Assembly: GCA_029865265.1 (NCBI GenBank)
Contig: JAOUHG010000004.1
Coordinates: 89,835 to 153,834, forward strand
Source of the DNA: Candidatus Krumholzibacteriia bacterium
GTDB taxonomy: Bacteria > Krumholzibacteriota > Krumholzibacteriia > WVZY01 > JAKEHA01
Reading direction: 5' to 3'
DNA length: 64,000 nt
The position numbers were made by a program, and so were the translations under genes. The stretch's first letter is position 1. Each line of letters begins with the position of its first letter. Shown here piece by piece: positions 17,469 through 41,723 of this stretch. The notes below the pieces were generated by a model. The model worked only from the letters and a program-made list of their open reading frames with translations, did not search any database and was not told where the DNA came from.

Positions 17469-17836
17469 AATCCGGGGTGGTGTTTGCGATGTTCGTCCTG
17501 GTGTTGGCTGGTTGCGCCGGTCCCAAGCCGCCGCCGCGTACCGGCGGGCCGGAACTGGTGGGCGGCGGGGCGCTGTTCCGCTACCGAAACTCTGATGCCA
17601 AAAAGGTTTACCTCGTTGGGGACTTCAACGACTGGGCCCCCTCCACCGACCCCATGACCGACGAGAACGGTGACGGGGAATGGACCCTTTTCTACCCCCT
17701 GGGGCCGGGCCGCTACGCCTACAAGTTCGTGGTCGATGGCCGCTCCTGGATTGCCGACCCCACCAACCCGGAGACGGAGGCGGACGGCTTCGACGGCTGG
17801 AACTCGGTGCTGGTCATCCCCGAGCTGACCCCCTGA
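17465..17836 (+). CDS. small lipoprotein with CBM48/AMPK-GBD-like domain
   Basis: ATGA overlap with the previous gene. Lipobox VLVLAGCAG. KVYLVGDFNDWAP...GRYAYKFVVDGRSWIADPTNP. Confidence 0.7.
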   Translation: MKSGVVFAMFVLVLAGCAGPKPPPRTGGPELVGGGALFRYRNSDAKKVYLVGDFNDWAPSTDPMTDENGDGEWTLFYPLGPGRYAYKFVVDGRSWIADPTNPETEADGFDGWNSVLVIPELTP

Positions 17837-17928: not shown

Positions 17929-18108
17929 AGTAGTTAATCAACCCACAGCTCCAAGGGGCCGCCGCGGTGTGAGTTTGCCCGCCATGGTTGCCCAGGTGCC
18001 GGGCCTGCACGCGCGGGGCATGGGAGTTGCACGTTTGCCCTTAGGAACGTTCCGCCCCCACCCCGGTATTTGCAGATGCTCCCGTCCGTGAACAGGAATT
18101 TTGACGCA

Positions 18109-27100: not shown

Positions 27101-30100
27101 ACAGCACGGTGGTGCCGGGCGGCATCCAGTCGGTGTCGCAGGACGACGCCGAGCTGATCTTGAATTGGACGGAGAACGGACGCTCCGGTTCCAACACGGT
27201 CGAGATCACCGACGGCGACATCGAGGTTCAGGAGGCGCCCGAACTGGGCATCGTGAGCCTGATTGCGAGCCGTGCCACCGTAACCGCCGGCCAGACATCC
27301 CCCACGTGGACCGTCGACATGGTGGTGCGCAACCTGGGCGGGCTCCCGGTGGACATCGATCTGGCCGCGGACTCCACCTACCTGGTCATGAATCTCCTGC
27401 AGGGAGGGCTGGATGTCTCCGACGAGTACACCATCGCCCAGCCCACCAAGCTCGAATCCGCGGGAGGCACGCTGCTCGGCCCGAGCCTCACCGACACGCT
27501 GCGGTTCACCGTTCAGCAGGCGGGCCTCACCGAGGGAATCGTGATCATCTCCGGGCTGGTCACCGGGCACGAGAACTCGACAGTGGTCATGGGTAACACC
27601 GACGCCGGCGGTACGGGCAGCTTCGAACTGCAGGCGCGGGGTGAGCTGGCAATCCGCAGCATCACGCCCGCCAGGACCACGGCGACAGTGGGGCAGACGT
27701 CGACCTACCGGATCCGCATGGCGGTGGAGAATACGGGTGGCGCGGCGATCGATCTCGATTTGACCAAGCCGAACACGGACCTCGGCTTCAGCAACTCCGG
27801 GTGGCTCACGACACTGGATGGGAATCTCGCCGGTGGCGGCGTGACGCTCTCCGGTGGAGAGGTCGATACGGTGACATTCACGGTTGATACCACCGGCGGG
27901 CCGGCCGGGGTGGTCACGATCAGTGGTGTCGTTGCCGGCGAGGAGACGAACACGGCCGCACCGAAGTTCGCTGACACCACGTCCGGCGGCACCGGGAGCA
28001 TCACGCTGCAGGGTGCGGCCGCGCTCAGCATCATTAATGTTGCGGGGTCGCGGGCGAGCATCACCGAAAACACCGGCGTGCCGTGGACGATCGACGTGGA
28101 TGTTCGGAATACCGGCGGCGCGATCGCACAGCTCAACCTGCCCGGCGGTGTCTCGGCCAGCGTGCAGGACGGGGCAGTTTCCTTTGCGCCCGTGGTCACC
28201 CTGCAGGGCGGTGGCAGCTCGCTCGCGCCGGGACAAACGGGCAGGCTTGTCTTCCAGGCCACGGCGAACGGCGCGTTCACCAGCTACGGCGCCAAGATCA
28301 TCACCATCGATGTGAACGGTTCCGACACCAACAGCGGCGACCCGCTCAACGCCGCCAGTAACTCGGCGAGCATCCTGGTGCAGAAGGCACCGGTCCTGCA
28401 ACTGGCCGGGTTCGACCCGTTCACGGTGACAAGCGGGGCCAACGCCCGCTTCAATGTGCGTGTTTCCAACCCGGATGCGGACGCCGCCACGGTTACGTTC
28501 GACCGCGGCAACACGCGCGTCCATTTCGCCGCGGGGGCCTACAGCGCGTTCCTCGACCTGAACAGCCCGGTGGCCATACCCGGCGGGGAAGACACCACCC
28601 TCGTCTTCGAAGACAAGACCGTGGTCTCGTCCATCCCGCTGGGCAAGTACGACTTCAACGCCAACCTGGCTTACAGCGCCAACGGGGTTCCGGTCACGTT
28701 TGCACCCTCACTGCTGGATACGCTCAGCGTGCAGGCGGCACCAACGCTTTCCATCGACCAGATCGAGGCCTCGCGGACAACGGTGACGGCCGGGCAGCAG
28801 GCGGACTGGACCGTCACCATGACGCTCCGCAACAGCGGCACGCAGCCGATAACGCTCGATCTCGCGCCGGCGGCCACGTACCTCACATTTGTTGCACCGG
28901 GCGCGCAGGTGGATGGTGGCTATCTGGTTATCCCCCCGCCGGGACTCCAGAACGCCGGCGGCGTGGTGCTTGGCGCCGGCCTCACGGACGTCCTGCTGTT
29001 CACCATCGACCAGACCGGCAGTCTCACCGGGCCGGTGACCATCAACGGACGCGTGCGCGGGCTGGTGGGCGGCGTCACCGAAGTCCTCGACGACACGTTC
29101 GACGGCGGCCGCGGGAATGTCAACGTGCAGAGCGCCGCGGCGGCGGCGATCACCGCCATTCGCGCCACCCAGCCCCGGGTGACCGCCGGGCAGTCGGCGG
29201 TCTGGGGCATCCGCGTGATCCTTGCCAACTCCGGTAGTTCCGCCGTGGACCTGGACTTCCCGGGGCTGGCCATTACCTTCGATGGCGCCGATCCTCCCAC
29301 CGCGGGCTGGGGCGTGACCCCGCCGACCGCACTCCTCTCAGGCGGCTCTACGCTTGCGGGTGGTTCGGTGGACAGCCTGGTGTTCACGGTGGAAGTCACC
29401 GGCCCCGCAGGTACGCCGGCGGTCGGCGTGGAGATTCCATACATAGAGGTGAACACGCAGCAGGCGGACACGCTCCTTTCCGGGGGCTACCAGCCCGTGG
29501 TTGTCGAGACGCCGCCGTCGTTGCACATCCTTACCACCAACCTCCTCGCACCCAACGCGCCCAACGTGAATGTCGGGCAGGGCTACAGTGTGGCGGTGAA
29601 CGTGGAAAACAGCGGCGGTGCGGCAGCGCGCGACGTGCAGCTCGAAGTGGAGTCGGGCAACGGCTGGAGCACCATCACCGGTGTGGCGCCCATCCCACTG
29701 GTGGGCGGGGCCGGCCAGACGGTGCTGGTGCCGATACCGGCCACGGCGGATACTGCCGGCCTGGATCTCCTGACCGCACGGATCGTTTCGGCGCTGGATG
29801 ACAACTCGGGCGAAGCGGCACCCGTCGTGATCGATGGTGATACCACCGAGGCGGTCAATGTGCAGACACCGGCGCAGCTCACCGTCGTCCTTGTGAGCAC
29901 GTCGCAGGCCTCGGTTACGCAGGGCCAGTCGAACCCGTGGAATGTGATCGTCACCGTGGAGAACGGCGGCGGCGCGGACCTCGATCTCACGGCGCCCACC
30001 AATGACGACCTGGTTTTCCGCCGTGGCGCGATTCAGAACGACTACTCGGTGGTCCCGCCGACGGCATTCGCCTCCGGCAACCCGGCCTGGCGCCTCGCCG

Positions 30101-32532
30101 GCGGCGCGAGGGACTCGCTCGTCTATGAGGTCGTGTCGACCGGCGCGCAGGTTGGCCTGGTCGACATCACCGCTCCGGTGGCGGGGACGGACCGCAACCA
30201 GCCCGCCAACAAACCGGCCGCGAGCGGTACCGCGCAGGTGACGGTGCAGCCCGCGGCCGGGCTGTCGATCCTCTCGACCGCGACCGTGGGGACCGTCAAC
30301 CACGCGACCGCCAACCGCGACACGGTCAACACGAACTTTGCATACGAGATTCACGTGACCGTGCAGAATCTGGGCGAGGCGGTGGACAGCGTGCTGGTCA
30401 ACCTGAGCACCGACCTGGCGTTGAATATGTCGGATATCCAGGCGGCGAGTTCCATCCGTCAGCAGATCGACGCCGATTCGCTGAAGACGTTCGTGTTTAA
30501 TGTCACCTCGCCGAGTGTGTCGACGCCGCTCGAGACCTTCACCGCCACCATCGCAGCGGGTGTGGTATCGCGCAACTCCGGCCAGCCGGTGACGCCCCAG
30601 CCGCCCATCGATGCGACACAGGTGGTGGTGGCGCAGCGGCCGGCGAACCTGGTGACGACCCTGGCCATCACGTCGCCGCCGACGGCCGTTGGCGGTACCG
30701 TGAGCCCCGGCCAGCAGTTCCAGGTGACGGCGCGGGTCAACAACACCGGCCAGGCGCTGGTCGGCGGCGCCGCCGAAGTCGAGTTGACGCTCCCGACCGG
30801 GTTCACGACGACCGACAACACGACACGCCCGTTTGTCGCCAACCAGCCGGTGGTGTGGAGCATCACGGCACCCGGTGCGGAACAGCCGGCCGACACGTTC
30901 CTGTGCGCGATCACGACGCGGCCGATCGATGTGAATACGGGGCAGGTGGCGTCCGCGTCCGTCCCGAGCTCTGTTCTCCTGGTGACCGTCGGCAGCGGCG
31001 GCGGCATGACGTCGCCGACGGTGAGCATCATCGGCCCCACCGGGGCAATCGATGGCACCATCAGCGCCGGGCAAACATTCACCGTGGACGCGTCGGTGGT
31101 TGCGACGCTGGACACGGAGAATATCGTGGCGACGATTGCGTACCCACCGGGCTTCTCCGTGTCGGGCAGCCCGGACCGCGCCATGGGCAACGGAACCGGC
31201 GCCGCGGTTTCCATCAACCCCAAGTACACCGTCACCGCGCCGGCAGTACCCGGCGGCGCGGATATCTATGTCACCTTCGTTGGCACGGACGCAAACTCGG
31301 GCGATCCGGTGTCCGCGGTTGACACCCTCCGGGTGACCGTGGTGCCGGTTGCGTCGCTCTCCGTCAGCGCGGGCATCACCGGCCCGCCCGAGGCCACCGA
31401 TGGAAGCGTGGGGGTGTCGACGCCATTCGTGGTCGAAGCGACGGTGGACAGCCTTGCGGGTACCGCCGGCGTCAGCGGACTCGCGACCATCAGCATCACG
31501 CCGCCCGCCGGCTACACCCTCGACGCGGGAAGCGCCATCGAAAACTTCACCGTCGGTGTGCCCGTGCAGTGGACCTTGCGCTCGCCAGCGATACGCACGC
31601 CGACGCCCGGTCAGATCCAGTTCCGCATCGAGACCATCCCGGTGGACGAGAACAGCGGCCAGACCGCGCAGGTGACCGCGCGCACGGCATCCATCGCCAT
31701 TCTCACCGAAGGCGCCACCGTGGCCGTCACCGAGGTCTCAAGCGGCCTTGGCCTCAACGACGGGCCCGTGCCCGGGGGAACCGCCGGCATCAGCCTGCTC
31801 GGCCTGCGCATGGCGTACAACGCCTCCGACGCCAACGCGCCCGACGCGGCCATCGACAACATCGCCGTTACCGTGTTGGACAAGAACGGCCAGCCTCTGG
31901 GCAACAGCACCCTCGCGCAGACCCTCAAACGTCTCACCGTCGACCTTGGCGCGCAAACCTACGAGGTCGTCGATCCGTCCGCGAACCCCGTCATGGTGGA
32001 TCTCACCGGCGGCGGCATCGACCGCATCATATTGCCGGACAGTTTCGTCACCGCCGTGGTCGGCGTCGACCTCGATGCGTCGCCGAAGGTAACCGAGTTC
32101 AGCGTGGGCATCCGCAACGGCGGCGTCACCGTGCGCGACACCGGCTCGGGCCAGAACCTCAGCATCACCGATGGCAACGGCAATGCGCTCGACGGGCAGA
32201 TTACGTCGGATCCCTTGATCGTGCTCTCCTCGAGCTTCGAGGAGTACGTGCACAACTATCCCAACCCGTTCCGGGCCGGGACACAGTCGACCAGGATCAC
32301 CTACCTACTCGACCAGCCCAGCGACGTGACCATCAAGGTCTACTCGATGACCGGCGAGCTGGTGTGGGAGGAGAGCATCTCTCGCAGCGATCCGGGCGGA
32401 CAAGCCGGCGCGCAGGAGGCCGAGTGGGACGGCCGCAACGGCAGCGGGGAAGTCGTGCGCAACGGTGTCTACGTGTGCGTGCTCAACGCCGGATCCAGGT
32501 CGGCGAAGTTCAGAATCGCGGTGGCCAAGTGA
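18109..32532 (+). CDS. giant (about 4,808 aa) repeat-rich surface protein: Ig-like repeats, CARDB-like repeats, T9SS type-A CTD
   Basis: Uninterrupted 14.4-kb ORF. ATG 18109 gives signal peptide MNLPRLPRVITLAATLSLAWAG (TTG 18070 and ATG 18076 are alternatives). At least 14 repeats of the type V.ARDA.GNPV.GQ.VTF, then about 20 repeats of the type V.N.GGA.V.LDL.... C-terminus NYPNPFRAGTQSTRITYLL...TIKVYSMTGELVWEE...VRNGVYVCVLNAGSRSAKFRIAVAK. Confidence 0.85.
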   Translation: MNLPRLPRVITLAATLSLAWAGVPAAAPGSGTAIISPTTIAAGSSGTWTITYTATEPFKDGTVRLTIPAGWTAPQNGSPVSPGYVSVSTNEPTGNPSLALGGSLITVTVDTLTAANTITITYGVGPTGLAQAATNDSTYTFEIASDPAGTATALIATSPTVQVNPAAPAYLTVAPDDTTVTAGDFAHYRLFVFDTFGNRSPLPSSRTVNFFPTHGQFYLTDDATPIGSVVIPAAQSSVEVHYRATLATTGTPHQLGALTLTGSPQLGGSADVSVVAGPLSTGNSLISATTPVVADGISQSSVEVTSRDAFGNPRQGDTVTLGVDGNADPTDPGPTTDGNGKTSGVVTDETAETVTVSAFINAQLIAATAPIDFVAGGVSGVTSTVDATTPVVANGVATSTITVTARDAQGNPVSGQVVTLALLPTANAVLTQPGGVTNGLGQVTGTLTSTVPGPRTITAVIGVTPLIDNAVVNFNSGPLASFQWTEVDGNAVAGVAETVRLTAKDALGNTVTGYTGTVTLTASSAGSGTVAWASLGINSTVPAGNNTATYTFAPGDNGTLQLSVTDTRAESIQLTATDGVPTGTSASILVGAATADKVVFDAGNNQSATVNTSVGTPPRVLVTDFYNNPVAGATVTFRVITTVTGVGSVDVTAGGGVDSTGTTDAGGYVDCDVWRMGINAGNNRLRALISSGSVPGFTFNATGTAGAENTLSLSPPSQSVTVGAFQVVTATLTDAFGNPKPNTRVDIAITAANGGTLEADPGHTTTQLSPTARWGNTDAAGVTTVRFRAPSTAGLPNTVDASTSVIGQGSVADVVYTSSASGATNLRITFQGASTAAAGTSIEFLVEAIDGNQNVDVTNTSQVNLTPQVGSTLAFSLDDLTFETTQFNLQSGARTIYARATMAGDWNITVDGSGLGPDTKQVSITDTGAIDHYVVTTVPSVVAGVTFDVSVQARDVYDNLVVGANNVVNLVAIDDVTTNPALSTLLVAQTTLSGGLATQAETYTRAELMRVRASASGKEGISGVVNVAAAPAYRIAKISGDNTGVAVSAPQLLEAQVLDAFDNPVAGQSVTFVVIGGGGSVLPGAPSTGAAGTAQTTLTTGSTPGNNLVKATILDENPASLERVDYLVETVPGGVAYFTVVPAKFNPIAGEAVNLTVTAFDAEDNVVSDDNTTQIQLSSGSGTVQFGVATGTLAAGVFSTTVTDNIAEQYTVTAELFGGGVPTGTSAPVTVGHAPAFAVVYVSGNASGVAAGSQQVLQVRVRDAYTNPVPGQPVTFAVASSPGGATITDAVGDPNDGITTTNAAGLAQATLNTSAVSGTNQVNARILDGLPPDHLVPFTVDTSPNSATTLRITFLGPTTVAAGQTSSFKVEALDAGQNLDTSNTSLITLTPQTGSNLDFSLSDFAGGLTQFNLVGGTRTIYVQGTKTGSWNITVDDGPGGLASDTKGITVNDAGVVDHYVVTAPSNAVAGATWNVLVEARDVYDNKVTGASNLVNLAAVLASDSTSLASSSLSVGQATLTGGSVVVNEFYTRAQGIRVRVRDAGSKEGFSGTVQIGAAIAYQVVNVSGDGIDIVAGTTRTLTGRVVDSYNNPVQNQTVSFTAVSGGGDFAGGTTAQSDINGTVVKGFNTGNVVGINVARASILDGNPIGVETTDFTVSTKAGALDNYEVVPVDPLKINLVANETTSVIARARDQYNNYRIQDNTTVVGLTATGSAVLGSAGGTLVNGAFTTTVRDDVAETFTVTAETGLDSGTSNPFTVSPGPPYRIVKVTADPVNGLPVGLQQPLVSEVRDEWNNAVGAGVSVTHLIVQAPDPSAYLRDAVGDTTDGITTTAANGRATALLGPANTAGLNRVSATILDGSPSGLERVTYDVNTVAGGIAKYQVTMGATSATAGTAVSVSVQALDANDNPVADNGTQVDLAGNPGAGLIFAANPLTLSGGTASTTVTASLVQTYAIKASSVLQPAVSGQGASVVVSPAAPAGVITATATADVITANGSSVTTLTSSVIRDAFLNQVPAGGGVTVTTSGGVILGTQPKIIGANGRVSFDLRSSTTPGPVTVSMTSVAGTAFGQKVIQFAQPVAFNTSQGPVPSIVKPGDNLRFRVVVANTSSTAANLTTATRFAFADGVHTFTAFLAAPKTVAAADTATLVFNNTTLDAAFASGAYTPVVTLIGNDQYGSAFNVSSPLPLNAVQVTSIEITLISAPSPVSRGQTRNVSVSVRNNGATPASLNNLTLSFSPGVGVYTPGTPSPALPVQIAAGNTATVVIPVTIETASGLGTDQIDAFAEATVGGQPVTDDSADPHPLGSWQIVAQASLVYAPGSLTPPAASRGKSYGFQMAIQNTGSGVVSLSPALTRLTFTDGSLNFSAAPVQAYAIPGGATQVLTFVDTAIPGGFAAGPVDVVLDAQGTDNGAPFTQLVSTAGSGDQLNIVTPAVLSAVAGTLSPVLTTQGATATFQVAVNNTGGATVDLFPATTTLSFTGFNASLDPTGPTSIGPLGNTTLRFIGTPVSAGSTPPGNYFPQIDVDGTENGLDYGASFASPSSVNVQAAPDILIAAILPSQTTITTDQARRIQVRMVVQNSGGATVSFTSASIRMFSGAVERTAQFGIAPPSAFQGGGNLAPASVDTLLFQVTDVAGPMSAGPLTIEGLLNVEDTATSQPITTNTSNGGKGALSVQTPATINILAVTPSLPTVTAGMDRDFTIRALIRNGGQSDVNVNAAAATLQFTPPGGWVRTPRATLGSGSNLLQGGEVDTLIFDVTTSGSVTGMVGIDATVGGTESNSARTFSNASSGAGSIVVQTAGNIVVSVVSSRATITSGASVPWTLSVTVQNTGGADVNLDLGAAVLVSFGDATTPPVPSVPPVLAGGGTLLSGGETDQFVIGVPVAGVYGTLGPQNMQVLVTGTELNSTVDKFDSDAASVIVQAAPDVAYISLTPSPVAKGVSVPFAVTVRNPVANGATLTLDPVTTRLQFAGGAFDAGLAGGPVTLAALEQKTLLFNSTVVPGGIQSVSQDDAELILNWTENGRSGSNTVEITDGDIEVQEAPELGIVSLIASRATVTAGQTSPTWTVDMVVRNLGGLPVDIDLAADSTYLVMNLLQGGLDVSDEYTIAQPTKLESAGGTLLGPSLTDTLRFTVQQAGLTEGIVIISGLVTGHENSTVVMGNTDAGGTGSFELQARGELAIRSITPARTTATVGQTSTYRIRMAVENTGGAAIDLDLTKPNTDLGFSNSGWLTTLDGNLAGGGVTLSGGEVDTVTFTVDTTGGPAGVVTISGVVAGEETNTAAPKFADTTSGGTGSITLQGAAALSIINVAGSRASITENTGVPWTIDVDVRNTGGAIAQLNLPGGVSASVQDGAVSFAPVVTLQGGGSSLAPGQTGRLVFQATANGAFTSYGAKIITIDVNGSDTNSGDPLNAASNSASILVQKAPVLQLAGFDPFTVTSGANARFNVRVSNPDADAATVTFDRGNTRVHFAAGAYSAFLDLNSPVAIPGGEDTTLVFEDKTVVSSIPLGKYDFNANLAYSANGVPVTFAPSLLDTLSVQAAPTLSIDQIEASRTTVTAGQQADWTVTMTLRNSGTQPITLDLAPAATYLTFVAPGAQVDGGYLVIPPPGLQNAGGVVLGAGLTDVLLFTIDQTGSLTGPVTINGRVRGLVGGVTEVLDDTFDGGRGNVNVQSAAAAAITAIRATQPRVTAGQSAVWGIRVILANSGSSAVDLDFPGLAITFDGADPPTAGWGVTPPTALLSGGSTLAGGSVDSLVFTVEVTGPAGTPAVGVEIPYIEVNTQQADTLLSGGYQPVVVETPPSLHILTTNLLAPNAPNVNVGQGYSVAVNVENSGGAAARDVQLEVESGNGWSTITGVAPIPLVGGAGQTVLVPIPATADTAGLDLLTARIVSALDDNSGEAAPVVIDGDTTEAVNVQTPAQLTVVLVSTSQASVTQGQSNPWNVIVTVENGGGADLDLTAPTNDDLVFRRGAIQNDYSVVPPTAFASGNPAWRLAGGARDSLVYEVVSTGAQVGLVDITAPVAGTDRNQPANKPAASGTAQVTVQPAAGLSILSTATVGTVNHATANRDTVNTNFAYEIHVTVQNLGEAVDSVLVNLSTDLALNMSDIQAASSIRQQIDADSLKTFVFNVTSPSVSTPLETFTATIAAGVVSRNSGQPVTPQPPIDATQVVVAQRPANLVTTLAITSPPTAVGGTVSPGQQFQVTARVNNTGQALVGGAAEVELTLPTGFTTTDNTTRPFVANQPVVWSITAPGAEQPADTFLCAITTRPIDVNTGQVASASVPSSVLLVTVGSGGGMTSPTVSIIGPTGAIDGTISAGQTFTVDASVVATLDTENIVATIAYPPGFSVSGSPDRAMGNGTGAAVSINPKYTVTAPAVPGGADIYVTFVGTDANSGDPVSAVDTLRVTVVPVASLSVSAGITGPPEATDGSVGVSTPFVVEATVDSLAGTAGVSGLATISITPPAGYTLDAGSAIENFTVGVPVQWTLRSPAIRTPTPGQIQFRIETIPVDENSGQTAQVTARTASIAILTEGATVAVTEVSSGLGLNDGPVPGGTAGISLLGLRMAYNASDANAPDAAIDNIAVTVLDKNGQPLGNSTLAQTLKRLTVDLGAQTYEVVDPSANPVMVDLTGGGIDRIILPDSFVTAVVGVDLDASPKVTEFSVGIRNGGVTVRDTGSGQNLSITDGNGNALDGQITSDPLIVLSSSFEEYVHNYPNPFRAGTQSTRITYLLDQPSDVTIKVYSMTGELVWEESISRSDPGGQAGAQEAEWDGRNGSGEVVRNGVYVCVLNAGSRSAKFRIAVAK
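18970..24220 (+). repeat. array of divergent bacterial Ig-like (Big/invasin-type) domain repeats within the giant gene (protein-level periodicity about 100 aa)
   Basis: Recurring V(T/Q)(A/S)RDA(F/Q/Y)(G/D)NPV.G(Q/D).VT(F/L) motifs at roughly 300-nt spacing. Approximate boundaries. Confidence 0.5.
24340..30700 (+). repeat. array of CARDB/DUF11-like domain repeats within the giant gene (about 110-130 aa period)
   Basis: Recurring V(R/Q/E)N(T/S/G)GGA.V(D/N)L(D/N)L and ...L.F(T/S)... motifs. Approximate boundaries. Confidence 0.45.
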
Positions 32533-34415
32533 TGAAACCCGTGACGCGCATACTCTGTGTGGTGACAATGGCCTGCCTGTGCATCCCGGGGACGGCACGT
32601 GCCCAGGACGCCGGCACCCAGAGCATCTTCTCGCTCGGCGCCGGCTCGCGCGGCATCGGGCTGGGCAACGCGTTCGTCTCGCTCGCCGACGACGCCAGCG
32701 CGGTGTACTGGAACCCCGCCGCGCTCAAGAACGCCGGCTCCATGCAGTTCATGGCCATGTACATGCCGCTCTACGGCGACTTCACCGGCGCCGACTACAC
32801 GTACTTTGGCTTCGTCTACCCGACGCTGTCGGCGGGCGCCTTCGGCGTGGGCTACACGCGCGTGGGAACCACCTTCGATTCCTACGACGAGCAGAGCCGC
32901 CCGCTGGGTGAGGGCAACTACTCGGAGAGCCAGCTGCTGTTCTCCTACGCCTTCGAGCGCCACTCGGGCTGGTTCCTGGGCTCGCTGGCCATGGGCGCGA
33001 GCTTCAAGATCAACCGCCAGATCGTGGATCCGTACTCGAGCACCGCGCCCGGCGTCGACGTGGGCTTGCGCTGGATTCCCGACGCGGCCAAGTCGCTCTC
33101 CATCGGTGTGAACCTGCAGGACGTGGTGGGCGCGCAGTACAAGCTGGATCTCAACGAGGACACGGTCTACCGCACCATCCTCATGGGCGCGGGCTGGACC
33201 CGGAACTTCGACAACGGGTCCGCGCTGCGCCTGATGTTGCAGTACGACATGCCCGAGGTGGCCGATGCGCGCTTCCACGCGGGCGCGGAGTACGCGTTCT
33301 CCAAATTCATCGCGTTGCGCGCCGGTTACGACAAGGACGTGGTCACCTTCGGCCTGGGTGTGGGCGCGTTCAACTACGGGCTGGACTACTCGTTCTACTC
33401 GCGCGACGAGGCCGGCTCCAACCAGGGCGTCACCTTCACCGCCCGTCTTGGCAAGTCGCTTGCAGAGCAGCGCGCGGAAATCGCCGAGCAACAGGCCCGG
33501 GAGGAGAGCGAACTCATCCGGCGCACCTTCGAGGCGCGGGTGGCGGCGCACAAGAAGACGGCGCGCGAGCTGGAGGCGCAGGGGGACTGGTCCGGGGCGC
33601 TGGGCGAATGGCGCATCGTGCTGGAGTACGTCCCCGACGACCAGGATGCCATCGAGGCGGCGGATGCGGCTCGAGCCCAGGTGGTGGCGCAACAGGCGGC
33701 CGCGGTGCGCGACGTCGAGACGCAGGCCGCCATTCGCACCCGCTTCGCGCGCGGGCTGGACCTGTTCAACCAGGACGATCTGCTGGGCGCGCGCGGCGAG
33801 TGGCTCGCCGTCCTGCAGATCGACCCGGGCAACCAGGGCGCGCAGGACTACCTGGCGCAGACCAATACCAAGATCAACGTGGCGGTTGGTTCACACATCG
33901 CCAACGCACACGCGCTCGAGTCGCAGAACCGCCTCACCGAGGCCATCGCGGAGTGGAACAACGTGCAGCAGTACGACCCGCAGAACGCCGAGGCGAGTGC
34001 CGCCATCGCGCGCATCCGCACGCGCATCGAGTCGGTCAGCCAGGACTACGCCACCTCGCAGCGCCGGCTGCGCATCGTGACGCTGTACAACGACGCCCTG
34101 CAGGATTACAACGCGGGGAATTACCAGGTGGCCATGACCAAGCTCAACGAACTCCTGCTCCTGCAACCCAACCACGAGGACGCGAAGAAACTGCAGGCGC
34201 TCACCAAGCGCCGCATCACGCCGTTGACCGACCAGGAGAAGTCGCGCGTGCGCGAACTCTACCTGGCCGGCATGCAGCACTTCTCACGGGACGAGTACGC
34301 CCAGGCCATCACCGAGTGGCAGAAGATCCTGGAGATTGATCCCACCAACGAGAGCGTTCAGCGCAGTATCGACGAGGCCCGCGAGCGTCTGCGCAAAGTC
34401 CAGGAACGGAAGTAA
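32532..34415 (+). CDS. PorV-like outer-membrane beta-barrel fused to C-terminal TPR-like domain
   Basis: ATG 32532 shares one nt with the giant gene's TGA (32530-32532). Signal peptide ILCVVTMACLCIPGTARAQ. IFSLGAGSRGIGLGNAFVSLADDASAVYWNPAALKNAG is the PorV/FadL-type signature. About 300 aa of barrel, then about 320 aa of TPR-like helical repeats (EWRIVLEYVPDDQDA..., GEWLAVLQIDPGNQGAQDYLA..., AITEWQKILEIDPTNESVQ). Confidence 0.75.
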   Translation: MKPVTRILCVVTMACLCIPGTARAQDAGTQSIFSLGAGSRGIGLGNAFVSLADDASAVYWNPAALKNAGSMQFMAMYMPLYGDFTGADYTYFGFVYPTLSAGAFGVGYTRVGTTFDSYDEQSRPLGEGNYSESQLLFSYAFERHSGWFLGSLAMGASFKINRQIVDPYSSTAPGVDVGLRWIPDAAKSLSIGVNLQDVVGAQYKLDLNEDTVYRTILMGAGWTRNFDNGSALRLMLQYDMPEVADARFHAGAEYAFSKFIALRAGYDKDVVTFGLGVGAFNYGLDYSFYSRDEAGSNQGVTFTARLGKSLAEQRAEIAEQQAREESELIRRTFEARVAAHKKTARELEAQGDWSGALGEWRIVLEYVPDDQDAIEAADAARAQVVAQQAAAVRDVETQAAIRTRFARGLDLFNQDDLLGARGEWLAVLQIDPGNQGAQDYLAQTNTKINVAVGSHIANAHALESQNRLTEAIAEWNNVQQYDPQNAEASAAIARIRTRIESVSQDYATSQRRLRIVTLYNDALQDYNAGNYQVAMTKLNELLLLQPNHEDAKKLQALTKRRITPLTDQEKSRVRELYLAGMQHFSRDEYAQAITEWQKILEIDPTNESVQRSIDEARERLRKVQERK

Positions 34416-34416
34416 C

Positions 34417-37400
34417 GTGTCCCGGCCGTCCGCTGCTGTCGAGAAGAAGTTGTCTCGCGATCTCACCGTAGTCGCGGAAGACTCCCAGCTGGGGCGGGTG
34501 CGGGATTTTGTGGTGGAAGTGTGCGAGGGGGCCGGATTCAGCCCGCGAGAGGTTTCCAACACCAAGCTGGCAGTCGACGAGGCGTGCACCAACATCATCA
34601 AGCACGCCTACGACGGTTCCGGGGAGCCGGGCAGCATCACCGTTATCGCCGAGATCGACTCCGGCAAGGTCAAGTTCCGGCTGCAGGATCGCGGCAAGCA
34701 CTTTGACTTTTCGGGTGTCAAGGATCCCGACCTCGACCAGTACGTCGAAACTGGCCGCAAGGGCGGCTTCGGCGTGTTCCTCATCAATCGCCTCATGGAC
34801 GGCGTGGAGTACCACGCCACCGACACCGGCAACGAACTGGTCCTCACCAAGCGCAGCCAGGCGACGTTCTCGGCCTCGGTGCTCCCCGGGAGACTCCCGG
34901 CGCGCGGCACGCTGCGCTTCAAGTTCATGGTGCGCGCCAGCAGTGGCCTGCTGGCGCTGGTCACGGTGATCGGCGTGGTCATGTTCGTGCGCCAGACGCA
35001 GGACATCAAGGCGCAGCAGGCCACGCAGTGGATTGAGAAGAGCCGCCTCACCGAGAGCCTGGCGCGGCGCAGCGTGTCGGCCCTGATGGACCCCAACGAG
35101 TACTCGCTGGAGCAAACCAACCTCACATCCGAACTGAGCAAGATGGTGGCGGCCAACGACGAGATTGCCTACGCGCGCGTCGTGGACGCCCTCGGGAACA
35201 TCCGTGCCTCCGCCACCGTGGACGAGGTGTTCCAGCCCTACCGCGCCCCGCAGGCGCAGCTGCTGCTGGACGACGGCCGAGTGACGTGGAGTCGCCTGGA
35301 GATGGACGGGCGCGGCGTGCGCGACATTGCGGTGAGCGTGTCGGTTCAGAACCCGGGTGGCGCGGCCTTCGACATCGGCGTGCTGCACCTGGGCGTATTC
35401 GAAGACGGCGTCGTGGGCGCCATCGAAGACACGCGCCTGCAGACCATGCTCCTGCTGGTGGCGCTGTTTGGCGTGGGCGTGCTGCTCATCCTGGGACTGG
35501 TGCAGGTGTTCGTGCGCCCCATCCAGATTCTCACCGACGGCGTGCGCGCCATCGGCGACGGCAATCTCGAGGGCAAGCTCGACGTGCGCGGCCCGGCCGA
35601 GATCGGTGCCATCGCCGGCGTGTTCAACGAGATCACCGAGAAGTTCAAGAAGGCGCAGACCTCGATCCTCGAGCAGGAAAAGATGCAGAAGGAAATCGAG
35701 GTGGCCAAGCAGATCCAGCAGTCGCTCCTGCCGCGCAATCGCCCGGAGATCTCCGGCTATGACATTGCGCCGCTATACCAGGCCGCGGCCGAGGTGGGCG
35801 GCGACTACTACGACTTCGTGCAGGTGGACGACGACACCATCGGCGTGGTGGTGGCCGACGTGTCGGGCAAGGGCGTTCCCGGGTCGCTGGTCATGACCAT
35901 GATCCGCACCGCGCTGCGCATGGAGGCGCGCGGCAACCGCAATGCGTCCGACGTGATGGCCAAGATGAACGCCTTCGTGACCGACGACATGAAGAAGGGC
36001 ATGTTCGTCACCATGTTCTACGTCATCCTCGACTCCAAGAATCGGGTGATCAGCTACGCCAGCGCCGGACACAATCCGATGATCCTCTATCGCCACGAGA
36101 CCAAGGAGACCTTCTTCCTCAACCCGCGCGGATTCCCGGTGGGCATCAGCCTCCCCGACGAATCCCTGTTCCGCCGTTCCATCAGTCTGGAGAAGATACG
36201 CCTCAAGAAGGACGACATGCTGGTGATCTACACCGACGGCGTCACCGAGGCCATGAACATGCGGCGCGACCAGTACGGCGAGGACCGCCTGGTGGACATG
36301 GTGCGCAGCTACGGACACATGTCGCCCGAGCAGTTCATTGCGCGTCTGGACGAGGACATCCGCCGCTTCACCGGCGACTACCCGCAGAGCGACGACATCA
36401 CCGTGGTGGCGGTGAAGGAAAAGATGACTGCGGACGACGTCCTGTTCGGCATCCGCCGCAAGCTCCTCGACCTGGTGGACGTGCAGGGCATGAGCGTCAA
36501 GGAGGCATGCCAGCAGATGCGCGTGTCGCCGGCCACCTACTACCGCTACAAGCGGCGCCTGGACCTGATGGGCGAGCGTGGCCTGCGCAACGACCAGTTG
36601 CGCGACGACATGAGCCTCAAGCGCGTGAGCCTGGAAGCGCGCAAGCGGATCATCCGCATCATCGTGGCCAATCCGGAGTTCGGCGCCAAGCGCATCACCA
36701 ACGAGTACAACGATGGCCGCGACGAGAACCAGCAAATCACCGAGCGCATGGTCTACGAGGAACTCAAGCGCCTGAACCTCAACACGCGCGACCTGCGCCT
36801 CGACTACCTGCGCCGCAACCGGCTCATCGACGAGGAAGGCAAACCGCTGCCGCCGGGTGCGCGCGAACCCGAGGCGGCGGGGCGCCCGTCAGAGGCGATC
36901 GACGAACTGCTGCGCGACATCCCCGGCGTTTCGCTGTCCCGGGACGCCGGCGAAGCAGCGGCGAAGCCCGCGCCCGAGACGGCGGATGCCGCGCGGACCC
37001 GCCCCGATGCCATGGGGGTGGCCGCGTCGTCCTCGGCCGGCATCACCGAGATTCGCCTCAACGGACACCTCGATTCCGCCTCCTCGGCCGGTCTCGAGAA
37101 ACGCCTGCGCGACATGATCGCCGCCGGCGCCACCCGCATCCTGGTGGACCTGAGCGACGTGTCGTACGTGTCCAGCGGTGGCTGGGGGATCTTCGTGGGT
37201 GAGGTGCACGGCCTGCGCAGTCGTGGCGGAGACATCGTGCTCTCCGGCATGACGCCCGAGGTCTACGATGTCTACGAACTGCTCGGCTTCGCCGACGTGT
37301 TGCGCGCATTCAAGTCCATTGCGGAGGCGCGCGAGTATCTGTCGCTTCCCGCCGATCAGCGCCCGGCACCGGGTCCGGGTCTCTCGCCCGATGAGGTGGC

Positions 37401-38640
37401 GGTGGCACACGGCCTCAGCGTCGAGCCCACGGACGTCGATGACACGCCGCGCGAATGGCAGAGCCTGCACGTGGAAGCCACCACGGTGGGCGAAAAGGGA
37501 GAGATCGCGGTTCTGTCGCTCGACGGCATCATCGACACGGTCAGCGCGGAGAAGTTGCGCGCGTCCGTCGACCAGATCATCTCCAACGGCCGCAACAAGA
37601 TCGTGGTGGACATGTCGCAGGTCGAGTACGTGTCCAGCGGTGGCTGGGGTGTCTTTACCGAGCGCCTGCGCGAGGTGCGCCGCGCGGGCGGCGACGTGAA
37701 GCTCTTCGGCATGGACCCCGACGTCTACTACGTGTTCACCATGCTCGGTTTCAACATCGTCCTGTCGTCGTTCGACATCCTCGTCGACGCCATCGAGGAC
37801 TTCCAGCGGCCCGCGCCGGCCATGGAGCATGATGGCGTCGATATCGCGCCGGTTCCGGTTGCGGATACGACGGACTACGAGGGGCGGGGACGCGTCGAGG
37901 CCAGCGTCCCCGGCATGGACATCGTATGGGAGGACGGGCCCGGTGGCATCCGCATCGCGCGCCTCTCGGGCATCATCGAGACCACGGCGGTCTCGCTGCT
38001 GGCCGACGAGATCGCCCGCGAGGTCGTGTCCGCACCGGAGGCGATCATCTTCGACCTGAGCCGCGTCGAGTACGTTTCCAGCGCCGGCTGGGGCCAGTTT
38101 GCGCATGCCTACGAGGGAGTGGGTGCGGTGGCGCTGGTGGGGCTGGATCCGGACCTGTACGAGGTCTACGAGTGTCTCGAGTTCCGGGCCTTCATTCGCG
38201 CCTACGCCACAGACGCGGAGGCCATTGTGGGGCTGGCCGGCGGCACCACCCCGCCGGCACCGGCGCCCGGGGCTCCGTCTGCGCAGGCGCCCGAGGCGGT
38301 GCGGCGCGACACGCACATGGACGGGATCGACGACGTCCTGGAGGGGGACACCGCGTCGCGGGTACCCGCACCGGACCCGTTCGACGGCGAGGCCTACCCG
38401 GCCCCGGCGCCCGCGGACCCCGAGGAGGAGCCGGAATGGCGCCACCGCTCGTGGGATGGGGTGGTCAAGCCCCCGGCCGACCTGGACGTAAACGCCTCCC
38501 GGCCGGACGAACGCGTGGATCAGGACCGAAAATTGCGTTCCATGGGCTGGGACTCCTATGGTGAGCGGCTGCGCAAGCGTTCCGGGGACGGCGGCGGTGG
38601 GGACGATGGCGGGGAGCCCGACGGGGGCGGCGACGCATGA
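34417..38640 (+). CDS. fused partner-switching megaprotein: RsbW/SpoIIAB-like Ser kinase (HATPase_c), TM, periplasmic segment, TM plus HAMP, PP2C/SpoIIE phosphatase, HTH, 3x STAS (anti-sigma antagonist) domains
   Basis: GTG 34417 lies 2 nt after the previous stop. N-terminus LAVDEACTNIIKHAY...GGFGVFLINRLMDGVEYH (anti-sigma kinase fold). Two hydrophobic helices. HAMP-like IQILTDGVRAIGDGNLEGKLDV. PP2C: QIQQSLLP...GGDYYDFV...VVADVSGKGVPGSL...YTDGVTEA. HTH: VKEACQQMRVSPATYYRYKRRL. Three STAS units, each with (D/V)(L/M)S.VEYVSS(G/A)GWG.F. Confidence 0.8.
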   Translation: MSRPSAAVEKKLSRDLTVVAEDSQLGRVRDFVVEVCEGAGFSPREVSNTKLAVDEACTNIIKHAYDGSGEPGSITVIAEIDSGKVKFRLQDRGKHFDFSGVKDPDLDQYVETGRKGGFGVFLINRLMDGVEYHATDTGNELVLTKRSQATFSASVLPGRLPARGTLRFKFMVRASSGLLALVTVIGVVMFVRQTQDIKAQQATQWIEKSRLTESLARRSVSALMDPNEYSLEQTNLTSELSKMVAANDEIAYARVVDALGNIRASATVDEVFQPYRAPQAQLLLDDGRVTWSRLEMDGRGVRDIAVSVSVQNPGGAAFDIGVLHLGVFEDGVVGAIEDTRLQTMLLLVALFGVGVLLILGLVQVFVRPIQILTDGVRAIGDGNLEGKLDVRGPAEIGAIAGVFNEITEKFKKAQTSILEQEKMQKEIEVAKQIQQSLLPRNRPEISGYDIAPLYQAAAEVGGDYYDFVQVDDDTIGVVVADVSGKGVPGSLVMTMIRTALRMEARGNRNASDVMAKMNAFVTDDMKKGMFVTMFYVILDSKNRVISYASAGHNPMILYRHETKETFFLNPRGFPVGISLPDESLFRRSISLEKIRLKKDDMLVIYTDGVTEAMNMRRDQYGEDRLVDMVRSYGHMSPEQFIARLDEDIRRFTGDYPQSDDITVVAVKEKMTADDVLFGIRRKLLDLVDVQGMSVKEACQQMRVSPATYYRYKRRLDLMGERGLRNDQLRDDMSLKRVSLEARKRIIRIIVANPEFGAKRITNEYNDGRDENQQITERMVYEELKRLNLNTRDLRLDYLRRNRLIDEEGKPLPPGAREPEAAGRPSEAIDELLRDIPGVSLSRDAGEAAAKPAPETADAARTRPDAMGVAASSSAGITEIRLNGHLDSASSAGLEKRLRDMIAAGATRILVDLSDVSYVSSGGWGIFVGEVHGLRSRGGDIVLSGMTPEVYDVYELLGFADVLRAFKSIAEAREYLSLPADQRPAPGPGLSPDEVAVAHGLSVEPTDVDDTPREWQSLHVEATTVGEKGEIAVLSLDGIIDTVSAEKLRASVDQIISNGRNKIVVDMSQVEYVSSGGWGVFTERLREVRRAGGDVKLFGMDPDVYYVFTMLGFNIVLSSFDILVDAIEDFQRPAPAMEHDGVDIAPVPVADTTDYEGRGRVEASVPGMDIVWEDGPGGIRIARLSGIIETTAVSLLADEIAREVVSAPEAIIFDLSRVEYVSSAGWGQFAHAYEGVGAVALVGLDPDLYEVYECLEFRAFIRAYATDAEAIVGLAGGTTPPAPAPGAPSAQAPEAVRRDTHMDGIDDVLEGDTASRVPAPDPFDGEAYPAPAPADPEEEPEWRHRSWDGVVKPPADLDVNASRPDERVDQDRKLRSMGWDSYGERLRKRSGDGGGGDDGGEPDGGGDA

Positions 38641-39374
38641 GGAAGCTGGCGATCATCACCTCCAAGGGCGGGACCGGCAAGACCACCACCGCCATCAATC
38701 TGGGGCACGGTCTTGCGCTGTGCGGCAAAAAAGTGCTGATCGTCGATTGCGATCCGCAGCGCAACGTGGCCATCGCCTTTGACGTGCGGGCGGGCAAGAC
38801 CCTGTGCAACCTGCTGCAACACGGCGAGGTGGAAGTAATCGAGGTGCGCAAGAACCTCTACGTGATCGATTCGGGTGGGCGCGAGCTGGCCGAGATCGAG
38901 ATGCTGCTGGCCTCGCAGTCGAGCCGCGACCGCCGGCTGGATCTGGCGCTCAAGAATTTGCGCGGGTGCGACGTCGTCATATGTGACTGTTCGCCCACGG
39001 TGAATCTGATCAACATCAACGCCATCGTCTTCGCCGACGAGGTGATCATTCCCGTGAGCATGGATTATCTGGCGCAGGCGGGAGCCCGTCAAACTATGCA
39101 GATTATCGATGAGATTAACGAGCACTCGGTGCGCAAGACGTCGATCATGGGCATCCTGCCCACTTTCTACGACTCGCGCACACGGCTCTCGGCCGACGTG
39201 CTCGGTTCGTTGCGGGAGCGTTTCGAGGAGAAGGTGTTCAAGAGCGTGATTCGCACCAATACGTCGTTGCGCGAGGCGCCGAGTTTTAACCAGACCATTT
39301 TCGAGTACTCGCCCATGTCGCGCGGTGCGTTCGACTACTATCAGTTGACCGAGGAAGTGCTGACCCGTGTCTGA
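38637..39374 (+). CDS. ParA/MinD-family P-loop ATPase
   Basis: ATGA overlap with the previous gene. Deviant Walker A KGGTGKTTTAINLG. DCDPQ motif. About 245 aa. Confidence 0.85.
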   Translation: MRKLAIITSKGGTGKTTTAINLGHGLALCGKKVLIVDCDPQRNVAIAFDVRAGKTLCNLLQHGEVEVIEVRKNLYVIDSGGRELAEIEMLLASQSSRDRRLDLALKNLRGCDVVICDCSPTVNLININAIVFADEVIIPVSMDYLAQAGARQTMQIIDEINEHSVRKTSIMGILPTFYDSRTRLSADVLGSLRERFEEKVFKSVIRTNTSLREAPSFNQTIFEYSPMSRGAFDYYQLTEEVLTRV

Positions 39375-39639
39375 ACGACGGCGCAAGTCCCTGGGGCGCG
39401 ATCCTTTCGAAGATAGCAAGGAATCGCACGAGACCGAGACGGTGAAGAAGCTCATCCGGGGCAAGTCGCCGCTTGCGCCCGACGCGCGCCAGGTCGAGGT
39501 CGTGGTACGGCTAACACCGGCAACGCTGAAGCACATCGACCGGGTGGCGGCGCAGCTCGCAGCGCGGGGACGCAAGATTTCGCGCGACGAACTGATTCGA
39601 ATCGCCATTTCGCTGCTGTCGGCGGAGGACGTCGTCTAG
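39367..39639 (+). CDS. small hypothetical protein (possible ParA partner, ribbon-helix-helix-like C-terminus)
   Basis: Overlaps the ParA-like stop. 90 aa. C-terminal ISRDELIRIAISLL resembles RHH/ParG-like partners. No homology is certain. Confidence 0.45.
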   Translation: MSERRRKSLGRDPFEDSKESHETETVKKLIRGKSPLAPDARQVEVVVRLTPATLKHIDRVAAQLAARGRKISRDELIRIAISLLSAEDVV

Positions 39640-40850: not shown

Positions 40851-41249
40851 ATGGAAAAACTGATTATCTCCGAAGAGCGTACCAACGCTGCCAACCCGGT
40901 TTCCGTGCTTACCCTGCGCGGTACCATCGAGACGACCAATGCCTCGGGACTCGAGGAGACGCTGGAGCGGATCGTCAACGAGAGCTGCTACCGCATCGTC
41001 GTCGATCTGGGCAGTGTCAGCTACATCAGCTCGGCCGGGTGGGGCATCTTCATCAGCGAGATCAAGCGCATCCGGCGCAACGGCGGCGACATCAAGCTTG
41101 CCGGCATGATGCCCGAGGTGCGCGAGGTATTCGATCTGCTCGAGTTTGGCAACATACTGAAACCGTTCATGAAGACGTCTGAGGCGATTCGTGACTTCGA
41201 AGTTGCGACCGACTCGGGAACACAAGGCGGACCGGCCGGTCGCCGATAG
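40851..41249 (+). CDS. STAS-domain anti-sigma-factor antagonist (RsbV/SpoIIAA-like)
   Basis: SVLTLRGTIETTNASGLEETLERIV...RIVVDLGSVSYISSAGWGIFISEI...DIKLAGMMPEVREVFDLL. Confidence 0.85.
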   Translation: MEKLIISEERTNAANPVSVLTLRGTIETTNASGLEETLERIVNESCYRIVVDLGSVSYISSAGWGIFISEIKRIRRNGGDIKLAGMMPEVREVFDLLEFGNILKPFMKTSEAIRDFEVATDSGTQGGPAGRR

Positions 41250-41284
41250 CGCGCGCGGCGGTCTCATTGCGGGGGATCAAGACC

Positions 41285-41659
41285 ATGGCTGTTGATGGAA
41301 TCGTAGTCAGCGTCACAACCGGCAGTAACGGCGCGGGCGTCTCCGTGCTCAAGGTGAGTGGCTACCTGGACACGACGACCGCGAGCGAACTCGAGACGGC
41401 GCTTTACGGCCTGCTCGATCGCGAGTCGTACCGTATCGTGGTGGACCTCTCCGGCGTCAACTACATCAGCTCCGCTGGCTGGGGCATCTTCATCGGTGAG
41501 ATCAAGCGCATCCGCAACCACGGTGGCGACCTCAAGCTGGCGGGCATGGTGGGCGACGTCCACGAGGTGTTCCAACTGCTCGAATTCCACTCCATCCTGG
41601 AGGCTTTCGGGACCACCGCCGAGGCGATTGACGCATTCAAGTCGAAGAGCGCCGGCTGA
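41285..41659 (+). CDS. STAS-domain anti-sigma-factor antagonist, paralog of previous
   Basis: ATG 41285 preceded by GGGGGA (TTG 41267 is an alternative). VLKVSGYLDTTTASELETALY...RIVVDLSGVNYISSAGWGIFIGEI...DLKLAGMVGDVHEVFQLL. Confidence 0.85.
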   Translation: MAVDGIVVSVTTGSNGAGVSVLKVSGYLDTTTASELETALYGLLDRESYRIVVDLSGVNYISSAGWGIFIGEIKRIRNHGGDLKLAGMVGDVHEVFQLLEFHSILEAFGTTAEAIDAFKSKSAG

Positions 41660-41685
41660 GCCGGGCGCTGTGAATCTGTGCTCCC

Positions 41686-41723
41686 TTCGGGGCCGCGCCG
41701 ACCGCGCGGCCCCGATTTGTTTC
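41686..41723 (+). terminator. Rho-independent terminator of the STAS gene; its T-tract is the IS target site
   Basis: cggggccgcg ccgac cgcggccccg hairpin followed by atttgtttc. The same atttgtttc recurs at 42936-42944 after the IS. Confidence 0.5.

Follow-up and report, generated by a model that had tools for sequence, protein, structure and literature searches.

The window analysed here is a stretch of 64,000 nucleotides from a Candidatus Krumholzibacteriia genome (GCA_029865265.1, contig JAOUHG010000004.1, positions 89,835 to 153,834), and its central feature is a single gene for a fused partner-switching protein, hereafter the regulator. An original prediction, made from the letters alone, had placed an RsbW-like kinase, a membrane sensor with a HAMP segment, a PP2C phosphatase, a helix-turn-helix (HTH) and three STAS antagonist domains in this one open reading frame (ORF), and this layout was borne out by Pfam and NCBIfam. 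The order of parts is RsbW-type kinase, first transmembrane segment (TM1), periplasmic domain, second transmembrane segment (TM2), HAMP, PP2C, bipartite HTH, three STAS domains and a C-terminal helix (Table 1). Judged from its sequence, the regulator is a real and conserved inner-membrane protein of Krumholzibacteria. It stands at the fully fused end of a family whose predicted constant unit is kinase-TM-sensor-TM-HAMP-PP2C-HTH, the C-terminus being bare, a TPR domain or three STAS domains according to lineage.

The frame is open from stop to stop over 34336..38640 (+). The start codon is GTG, not ATG; it lies 1 nt past the TAA that ends the upstream gene, and the purine-rich GGAACGGAAG stands before it. 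At the level of the whole protein, NCBIfam matches were obtained to RsbW (PRK04069, 3.8e-22) and to the anti-sigma-factor antagonist family (9e-40). A protein in public collections (P0001) is 100 % identical to the regulator, and a member of the cluster is deposited in NCBI nr as MDH4036338.1, an 'anti-sigma factor antagonist' of Candidatus Krumholzibacteria. The sequences of the family are public under automatic names only. The strings quoted in the original prediction (LAVDEACTNIIKHAY, GGFGVF, YVSSGGWG twice and YVSSAGWG once) were all located in the translation, and the HATPase_c_2, HAMP, SpoIIE/PP2C and STAS matches that it anticipated were all obtained in the Pfam run.

Residue conservation was assessed in an alignment of 18 sequences of 46–77 % identity and again with 64 sequences; invariance below refers to the former unless stated. 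In the kinase domain, which is of the GHKL class with N-box and G1/G2 boxes and whose match in the PDB is Bacillus subtilis RsbW (6M36, 1.3e-11), the N-box (AVDEACTNIIKHAY against AVSEACTNAVQHAY), the DxG motif (DRGKHFDF against DEGDSFDF) and the GGxG motif (GGFGVF against GGLGLY) are in register with RsbW, and E55, N59, D91, G93, G116, G117 and G119 are invariant. Four lysine or arginine residues lie within the 17 aa before TM1. From the two hydrophobic segments and this basic flank, the kinase is predicted to lie in the cytoplasm together with all parts that follow HAMP, the phosphatase included, and some 145 aa would be periplasmic. The position of the kinase before TM1 had been called an unusual topology; it is instead an ordinary arrangement with the N-terminus inside and two TM segments, and it is conserved.

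The match of the periplasmic domain to sCache_3_2 is weak in the regulator, and the corresponding entry PF17203 is precomputed for many homologues; the same domain is also found in unfused TM-HAMP-PP2C genes of other phyla. The HAMP sequence PIQxLTDGVRAIGxG is invariant, and a helical linker joins HAMP to the phosphatase. The relatives of the PP2C domain in the PDB, at about 1e-12, are Rv1364c (3KE6, 4.2e-12), SiaA (6K4E) and REC-PP2C proteins, and its residues D463, D466, D481, G484, D607, D659 and D660 are invariant.

Pfam STAS was matched over three stretches (E 6e-48). Ser920, the second serine of YVSSGGWG in STAS domain 1, falls on the phospho-serine of RsbV (6M36_B), which we take to be Ser56, and on that of SpoIIAA (1AUZ). 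The aligned phospho-acceptor of SpoIIAA is Ser58 (PMC13373217). Ser1074 and Ser1222 are equivalent to Ser920 by alignment, the STAS serines are invariant or nearly so, and YxSSGGWG is invariant in STAS domain 1. The conserved phospho-serine context claimed for each STAS domain is thus upheld by both the alignment and the family. Because catalytic motifs and STAS serines are invariant, the kinase, the phosphatase and all three cis substrates look functional. Two further STAS genes downstream encode free proteins that are 52 % identical to each other, which brings the operon to five STAS domains, three fused and two free. All five have Y(V/I)SS(G/A)GWG in common, with 32–52 % mutual identity and 15–24 % identity to SpoIIAA.

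The C-terminal helix motif follows a disordered linker of about 90 aa. Its residues D1370, G1377, W1378, G1382 and L1385 are invariant, AlphaFold2 (AF2) models it as a helix with a predicted local distance difference test score (pLDDT) of about 80, and it is confined to the clade with three STAS domains, which also has a ParA-like gene. This helix may serve as a docking peptide or in membrane targeting. In the AF2 model of aa 668-1407 the HTH and STAS domains are folded (pLDDT >90), with Pro/Ala-rich disordered linkers between them.

The HTH module has two subdomains, HTH_28-like and HTH_32-like, each of which forms three helices in the structure model. It was matched by Pfam HTH_23/HTH_28 at aa 680-725 (E about 3e-6) and by the NCBIfam IS481 transposase model NF033577 (3e-13), with aa 680-791 on profile positions 2-110 of 284 and a score of 49.9 bits against a whole-protein cut-off of 224. 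A DDE/rve catalytic core was not found, the IS481 match ending at position 110 of 284 and no rve match being obtained in Pfam. The module is basic (isoelectric point 9.8), all other domains being acidic, and 32 of its positions are invariant across the 64 sequences. It is also rare: a search of 1.84 billion proteins gave 329 representatives at E<=1e-3. Among the 148 of these that were listed, about 58 (~40 %, a count that includes N-terminally truncated fragments) have the HTH at ~aa 650-800 of a complete kinase-to-HTH core, ~35 are fragments in which the HTH immediately follows PP2C, and ~50 showed the HTH match alone. The module is read as a putative exapted transposase DNA-binding domain and not as a mobile element. 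A recent remnant of an insertion sequence (IS) is ruled out by the conservation and by the lack of a DDE domain.

Full-length homologues of 1,380-1,575 aa number more than 115 and come from many independent assemblies. Domain hidden Markov models built from the alignment recovered all nine parts in order in 115 of the best 120 homologues, which belong to Krumholzibacteriota and Latescibacterota and have 44–88 % identity; exactly three Y[VIA][SN]S[GAST]GWG motifs are present in 109 of these 120. Five loci from metagenome-assembled genomes are colinear with the window, four of them from GTDB species representatives (L001, L002, L003 and L019) and one further (L081). The concern that a frameshift or mis-assembly had fused separate genes, or that the HTH is an IS leftover, could appeal to the unfused operons with the same components in other phyla and to the resemblance of the HTH to IS481/IS3/IS630 transposase N-termini, but the same continuous architecture in so many homologues and assemblies, the five colinear loci and an HTH with 32 invariant positions, no DDE domain and a constant place in the family leave practically no probability for it.

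The relatives of the regulator form a series of fusions. In the first type the components are unfused, as operons of TM-sensor-HAMP-PP2C, STAS and kinase genes (L011-L017, L038, L039, L072 and L078) in Spirochaetes, FCPU426, Goldbacteria, Planctomycetota, Ignavibacteria, Bacteroidota and Geobacter; the bearers include the cultured G. hydrogenophilus (L078). In the second type, seen in Eisenbacteria (L004/L005) and at L006 and L033, the kinase is fused to the N-terminus and the HTH to the C-terminus of TM-HAMP-PP2C, with STAS as the next gene. The third type adds a C-terminal TPR domain to the core (proteins P0181, P0186, P0198, P0175 and P0137; loci L007, L033 and L082) and occurs in KSB1- and Calditrichota-like lineages. 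The fourth, that of the window, consists of the core with three STAS domains and the conserved C-terminal helix.

In lineages without a STAS fusion the free STAS proteins are 220-250 aa long, against about 120 aa, and end in an extension with homology to the second HTH subdomain of the large protein (hhalign probability 96 %, E 3.8e-9 over 58 columns). Pfam annotates only the STAS part of these STAS-HTH proteins, which form a family of >120 clusters, mostly from Eisenbacteria; the 120 listed are 78–100 % identical over the full length. STAS and this HTH travel together in two arrangements, and this is the strongest argument here for the HTH being the part that is switched.

Table 1. Positions of the regulator, its domains and the associated genes and features. 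Coordinates are those of the window unless a related locus is named.
Feature	Position	Strand	Evidence or detail
Surface protein, 4,820 aa, signal peptide, Big_1/Invasin (including Invasin_D3) repeats	18070..32532	+	Type IX secretion system (T9SS) type A sorting domain
PorV/PorQ-family outer-membrane barrel with C-terminal TPR, signal peptide	32532..34415	+	NCBIfam PorV_fam 3.4e-25
Regulator, whole gene, fused partner-switching protein, 1,407 aa	34417..38640	+	GTG start, TGA stop
RsbW/SpoIIAB-type Ser kinase domain, aa 20-145, predicted cytoplasmic	34474..34851	+	Pfam HATPase_c_2 6.7e-28
TM1, about aa 176-196	34942..35004	+	Hydropathy peak
Periplasmic sensor domain, about aa 197-342	35005..35442	+	Weak Pfam sCache_3_2, aa 198-332, E 0.004
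TM2, about aa 343-365	35443..35511	+	Hydropathy maximum 3.0
HAMP domain, aa 364-406	35506..35634	+	Pfam HAMP 4e-8
PP2C (SpoIIE/RsbU-type) Ser phosphatase domain, aa 471-667	35827..36417	+	Pfam SpoIIE 1.3e-47
Bipartite HTH module, aa 672-805	36430..36831	+	IS481/IS3/IS630 transposase N-terminal type
STAS domain 1, aa 874-971, predicted phospho-acceptor Ser920	37036..37329	+	Pfam STAS, alignment to SpoIIAA/RsbV
STAS domain 2, aa 1012-1130, predicted phospho-acceptor Ser1074	37450..37806	+	Pfam, NCBIfam, PDB, alignment
STAS domain 3, aa 1165-1275, predicted phospho-acceptor Ser1222	37909..38241	+	4QTP match, aa 1158-1238
Conserved C-terminal helix motif D..LRxLGWxxYGxRL, basic, about aa 1365-1392	38509..38592	+	
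ParA/MinD-type ATPase	38637..39374	+	Pfam AAA_31 3.9e-37, CbiA 1.9e-20
TPR protein, 390 aa	39647..40819	+	
Free STAS protein A, 132 aa, YISSAGWG	40851..41249	+	Pfam STAS 8.7e-19
Free STAS protein B, 130 aa, Met at 41285, YISSAGWG	41267..41659	+	Pfam STAS 7.8e-19
Terminator-like hairpin, 12-bp stem, 11 G-C pairs, T-rich tail	41687..41715	+	After second free STAS gene
STAS-HTH free proteins of related loci	L004:7535-8269, L005:12349-13095, L006:9022-9762, L033:6219-6932, L082:14364-15029		

The genes from the giant surface protein to the second free STAS protein probably form one predicted operon ending at the hairpin, because all of them lie on the + strand with overlaps or gaps of 1-30 nt and the terminator-like hairpin follows. 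A scan of the operon for sigma-70 promoters returned background levels. The start of the ParA-like gene overlaps the stop of the regulator (ATGA), and the gene is downstream of the regulator in 6/6 loci of the type with three STAS domains. The ParA-like protein has a deviant Walker A motif (KGGTGKT, aa 10-16) and scores below the NCBIfam equivalog cut-offs of ParA, BcsQ and MinD. The ParA-like and TPR genes recur together in L001, L002, L003, L019 and L081, and both free STAS genes are kept in the same five loci. The fusion of TPR to the core in other lineages, set beside the separate TPR gene here, is a hint that the core and the TPR protein interact.

Several observations were made on the ORFs around these genes. 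A 90-aa ORF (39367-39639, +) overlaps the ParA-like gene; its N-terminal tail is basic, and its ribbon-helix-helix match is weak. The two recall type Ib ParA/ParG pairs; as a ParG-like partner this ORF was rejected, being kept in L001 only and having no room in L003. The hairpin overlaps the annotated start of a 397-aa ORF (41678-42871, +) with an IS1-transposase-like HTH (1.7e-10). This ORF was likewise rejected as a part of the system: it is absent from all related loci and resembles an insertion specific to this lineage or a remnant of an IS. In the related loci, a VWA gene comes directly after the second STAS gene. The corresponding VWA membrane protein of the window (42979-45210, +) has two N-terminal hydrophobic segments and one C-terminal one, and it is followed by a protein with a lamin-tail domain (LTD) and a signal peptide (45283-46983, +). 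Synteny of the VWA and LTD genes with the regulator extends over loci of Krumholzibacteria, Latescibacteria and Eisenbacteria.

Upstream, the giant surface protein has at its extreme C-terminus a match of 29.8 bits (curated cut-off 23) to TIGR04183, the model for T9SS type A sorting domains. Pfam FlgD_ig, CHU_C and Por_Secre_tail matches to this protein were also obtained. The gene for the PorV/PorQ-TPR protein stops 1 nt before the start of the regulator. The order of giant T9SS cargo, PorV/PorQ-TPR gene and regulator is kept in L081, where the regulator is 45 % identical, and in the TPR-type locus L082, where only these genes and one STAS gene are common to the two and housekeeping genes follow. 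The order is also retained in Eisenbacteria, KSB1 and Calditrichota, and the two genes stand upstream of some unfused PP2C genes. Overall, a PorV/PorQ-TPR gene is adjacent in 11/11 loci with this periplasmic domain compared to 7/69 without it, counts that are uncorrected for phylogeny.

Further features lie farther upstream. A second, weaker PorV/PorQ-like ORF (12575-13591, +) shares about 31 % identity with homologues of the PorV/PorQ-TPR protein. The C-terminus of a 439-aa protein (4639-5958, +) resembles T9SS sorting domains (CHU_C and the PorZ/PorU C-termini), and this protein may be a T9SS cargo. Glycogen-binding-type modules (CBM48/AMPK1_CBM) are present in three consecutive ORFs upstream of the giant gene (15053-17038, with a signal peptide, 16923-17468 and 17426-17836, all +). 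A DUF4388 protein (10975-11607, +; 1.9e-33) also matches a model of the MshE-related cyclic-di-GMP-binding motif (2.8e-12).

A sigma-factor family was not found among about 50 ORFs of the 64-kb window in the Pfam and NCBIfam scans, as had been predicted, and none was detected in the window and 80 related loci by phmmer with two short RpoD segments, an insensitive query. The HTH and the ParA-like ATPase, which the original prediction had put forward as outputs, are both viable in that role and are retained as candidates only.

The reading that we favour, with moderate confidence, is that the regulator is an envelope-sensing switch based on serine phosphorylation, with the HTH and/or the STAS domains, not a linked sigma factor, as its output. 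From what is known of the family, the kinase would phosphorylate the five STAS serines. A periplasmic signal would pass through HAMP and the helical linker to a PP2C dimer and so set the rate of dephosphorylation, as in RsbU-type phosphatases. HAMP-linked PP2C is a common architecture, for which control through a dimeric helical linker has been predicted (PMC12143880). We hypothesize that the signal probably reflects the giant T9SS-type protein or its PorV/PorQ-TPR partner, whose TPR domain should be periplasmic; the periplasmic domain of the regulator would then communicate with that TPR domain or with the cargo itself. The phosphorylation state of the STAS domains would be read out without a linked sigma factor, most likely by gating DNA binding or oligomerization of the fused HTH in a CapS-like manner, with the ParA-like ATPase and the TPR partner as a possible second readout. 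The regulator probably controls the giant surface protein encoded upstream of it.

Several results weigh against this switch. Operator-like repeats were not found upstream of the giant gene, where only short G+C-rich, chance-like matches were present. No fixed arrangement of the HTH and STAS domains was predicted in the AF2 model of aa 668-1407 (predicted template modelling score 0.40), that is, no docking in cis. The PorV_fam match of the barrel covers profile positions 7-319 of 326 and scores 89.3 bits, 0.7 bit under the curated cut-off of 90. The association between the periplasmic domain and the PorV/PorQ-TPR gene is confounded by shared ancestry, and a sigma factor encoded outside the window stays conceivable.

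A more specific form of the envelope-sensing switch, which we put forward only tentatively, would make the system a serine-phosphorylation counterpart of a two-component system. Here the STAS domain would act as the receiver for an attached HTH, one membrane sensor would house both the kinase and the phosphatase that opposes it, and the input would be the state of the giant T9SS protein, sensed in the periplasm via the TPR of the PorV/PorQ-like protein. The HTH would be in cis in the regulator, and it would reside on the soluble STAS-HTH proteins in Eisenbacteria and relatives.

Alternatively, the output could be spatial or at the protein level. The unphosphorylated STAS domains or the C-terminal helix would then have as targets the ParA/MinD-like ATPase, along with the TPR protein and the VWA membrane protein, and would thereby position or gate secretion or anchoring of the giant protein, the HTH serving only as a tether or having a minor role. 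This would fit the translational coupling of the ParA-like gene and its presence in all six loci with three STAS domains, the limitation of the C-terminal motif to the clade that bears ParA, the use of TPR as a fusion partner in other lineages and the synteny of the VWA and LTD genes. Non-sigma targets of STAS proteins are also on record for SypA (PMC10120452) and for HsbA (PMC6482189, PMC5085249). However, the loci of the short and TPR types (L004-L008, L033 and L082) lack the ParA-like gene, the TPR gene and the C-terminal motif but retain the core and its HTH as well as a STAS gene and the giant and PorV-like genes, and we regard a protein-level output as rather doubtful.

We consider unlikely a classical anti-sigma function, in which the tethered RsbW-like domain would hold an unlinked sigma factor until dephosphorylated cis or free STAS domains displaced it, leaving the HTH as an accessory. 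The kinase is indeed closest to RsbW in both the PRK04069 and the 6M36 comparisons given above, the fused chain Rv1364c still controls SigF (PMC9138534), and five STAS domains could allow a steep, titratable release. Nonetheless, the window and the 80 related loci yielded no sigma gene in the scans described, of which that of the related loci was insensitive, and several characterized partner switches have non-sigma outputs, SypA and CapS among them. Furthermore, the HTH is constant in every kinase-fused member and recurs on free STAS proteins, which a sigma output leaves unexplained.

If the form of the switch that resembles a two-component system is correct, the operon would constitute a feedback loop across the envelope that acts on a surface adhesin, assembled from a partner-switching module and a domesticated transposase DNA-binding domain. 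Partner-switching modules have usually been studied as sigma controllers made of separate proteins. The family shows a different wiring in Krumholzibacteriota, Latescibacterota, Eisenbacteria, KSB1 and Calditrichota, with kinase and phosphatase in one membrane sensor, a putatively transposase-derived DNA-binding domain as a constant part, and STAS and TPR swapped between separate gene and fusion. The natural fusion series is in this respect a 'Rosetta stone' for which proteins work together, and the synteny suggests a dedicated surface-adhesin regulator in uncultured bacteria, where none of that kind is known. The regulator would also offer a compact construct for the balance of kinase and phosphatase on multiple cis substrates. 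The public label 'anti-sigma factor antagonist' conceals most of this content.

With respect to known systems, the regulator shares the three folds and the catalytic motifs of the canonical RsbU-RsbV-RsbW and SpoIIE-SpoIIAA-SpoIIAB switches. Those consist of separate proteins with a sigma output, whereas the regulator has all parts fused, a membrane-tethered kinase and an HTH; its relatives include unfused operons with the same gene order. The original prediction knew of no architecture that combines all three activities plus a DNA-binding module, and this does not stand for the three activities themselves. Mycobacterium tuberculosis Rv1364c carries PAS, PP2C, kinase and STAS on one chain, and its kinase and PP2C act in cis on the STAS serine, the former adding and the latter removing the phosphate (PMC9138534). 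The regulator is like Rv1364c in having the three partner-switching activities on a single polypeptide, with detectably similar PP2C domains (3KE6, match given above). It differs in most other respects: Rv1364c is soluble, senses through PAS, has the order sensor-PP2C-kinase-STAS with one STAS domain and without an HTH, and acts on SigF, whereas the regulator has an N-terminal kinase, a two-TM periplasmic sensor with HAMP, three cis and two free STAS domains, an inserted HTH and no sigma gene nearby. A PAS match was not found in the regulator with Pfam.

The order of kinase, sensor and phosphatase is not new either. Vibrio fischeri SypE has an N-terminal RsbW-like kinase, a central sensory module and a C-terminal PP2C, and its downstream STAS protein SypA has a non-sigma output controlling a surface or biofilm trait (PMC10120452). 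SypE and SypA differ from the regulator in having a cytoplasmic receiver domain, a separate 105-aa SypA, no HTH and a polysaccharide locus as their setting. A REC match was not found in the regulator with Pfam, its central module being TM-periplasmic-TM-HAMP.

Kinase, STAS and HTH have likewise been brought together before, in CapK (HTH-STAS-GHKL kinase) and CapS (STAS-winged HTH repressor); phosphorylation of CapS at Ser54 by CapK breaks the dimer and releases DNA (EMBO J 2026, PMC13373217). The likeness lies in the combination of an anti-sigma-type GHKL kinase with STAS and HTH. Unlike the regulator, CapK/CapS have neither PP2C nor a membrane sensor, their winged HTH is MarR/ArsR-like whereas that of the regulator is transposase-like, and CapK, for which single-stranded DNA is the activator, controls anti-phage operons, with a different domain order and genomic context. 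CapK/CapS would nevertheless be the best mechanistic analogue for the HTH-STAS part of the regulator and for the Eisenbacteria STAS-HTH proteins, with demonstrated homology limited to the STAS and kinase folds. A CapS match was not found in a PDB sequence search with a STAS-HTH protein, the deposition of CapS in the PDB copy searched being uncertain. As for the HTH itself, IS481, IS3 and IS630 transposases match both of its subdomains ('paired-like'), but that of the regulator lacks a DDE/rve core, is embedded in a signalling protein and is conserved across phyla.

A parallel to the proposed input is the PorA-PorXY-SigP relay of Porphyromonas, in which a T9SS cargo with a C-terminal sorting domain interacts with PorV and signals to an inner-membrane sensor that controls transcription (PMC7712824). 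That relay uses a histidine-kinase two-component system and an extracytoplasmic function sigma factor, unlike the regulator, and the likeness is conceptual only. Beyond the Rv1364c, SypE and CapK/CapS precedents, the architecture of the regulator was not found in the literature searches. The literature and the curated family libraries likewise did not return a membrane-anchored kinase-to-PP2C-HTH core whose HTH is of transposase type, a set of three cis and two free STAS paralogues, free STAS-HTH proteins, or a link to a T9SS-type giant protein and a PorV/PorQ-TPR protein. Of the novelty claimed for all three activities plus a DNA-binding module, fusion as such is thus already known and this combination is not. 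Taken together, the family, the fusion series and the genomic context point to an undescribed regulatory circuit.

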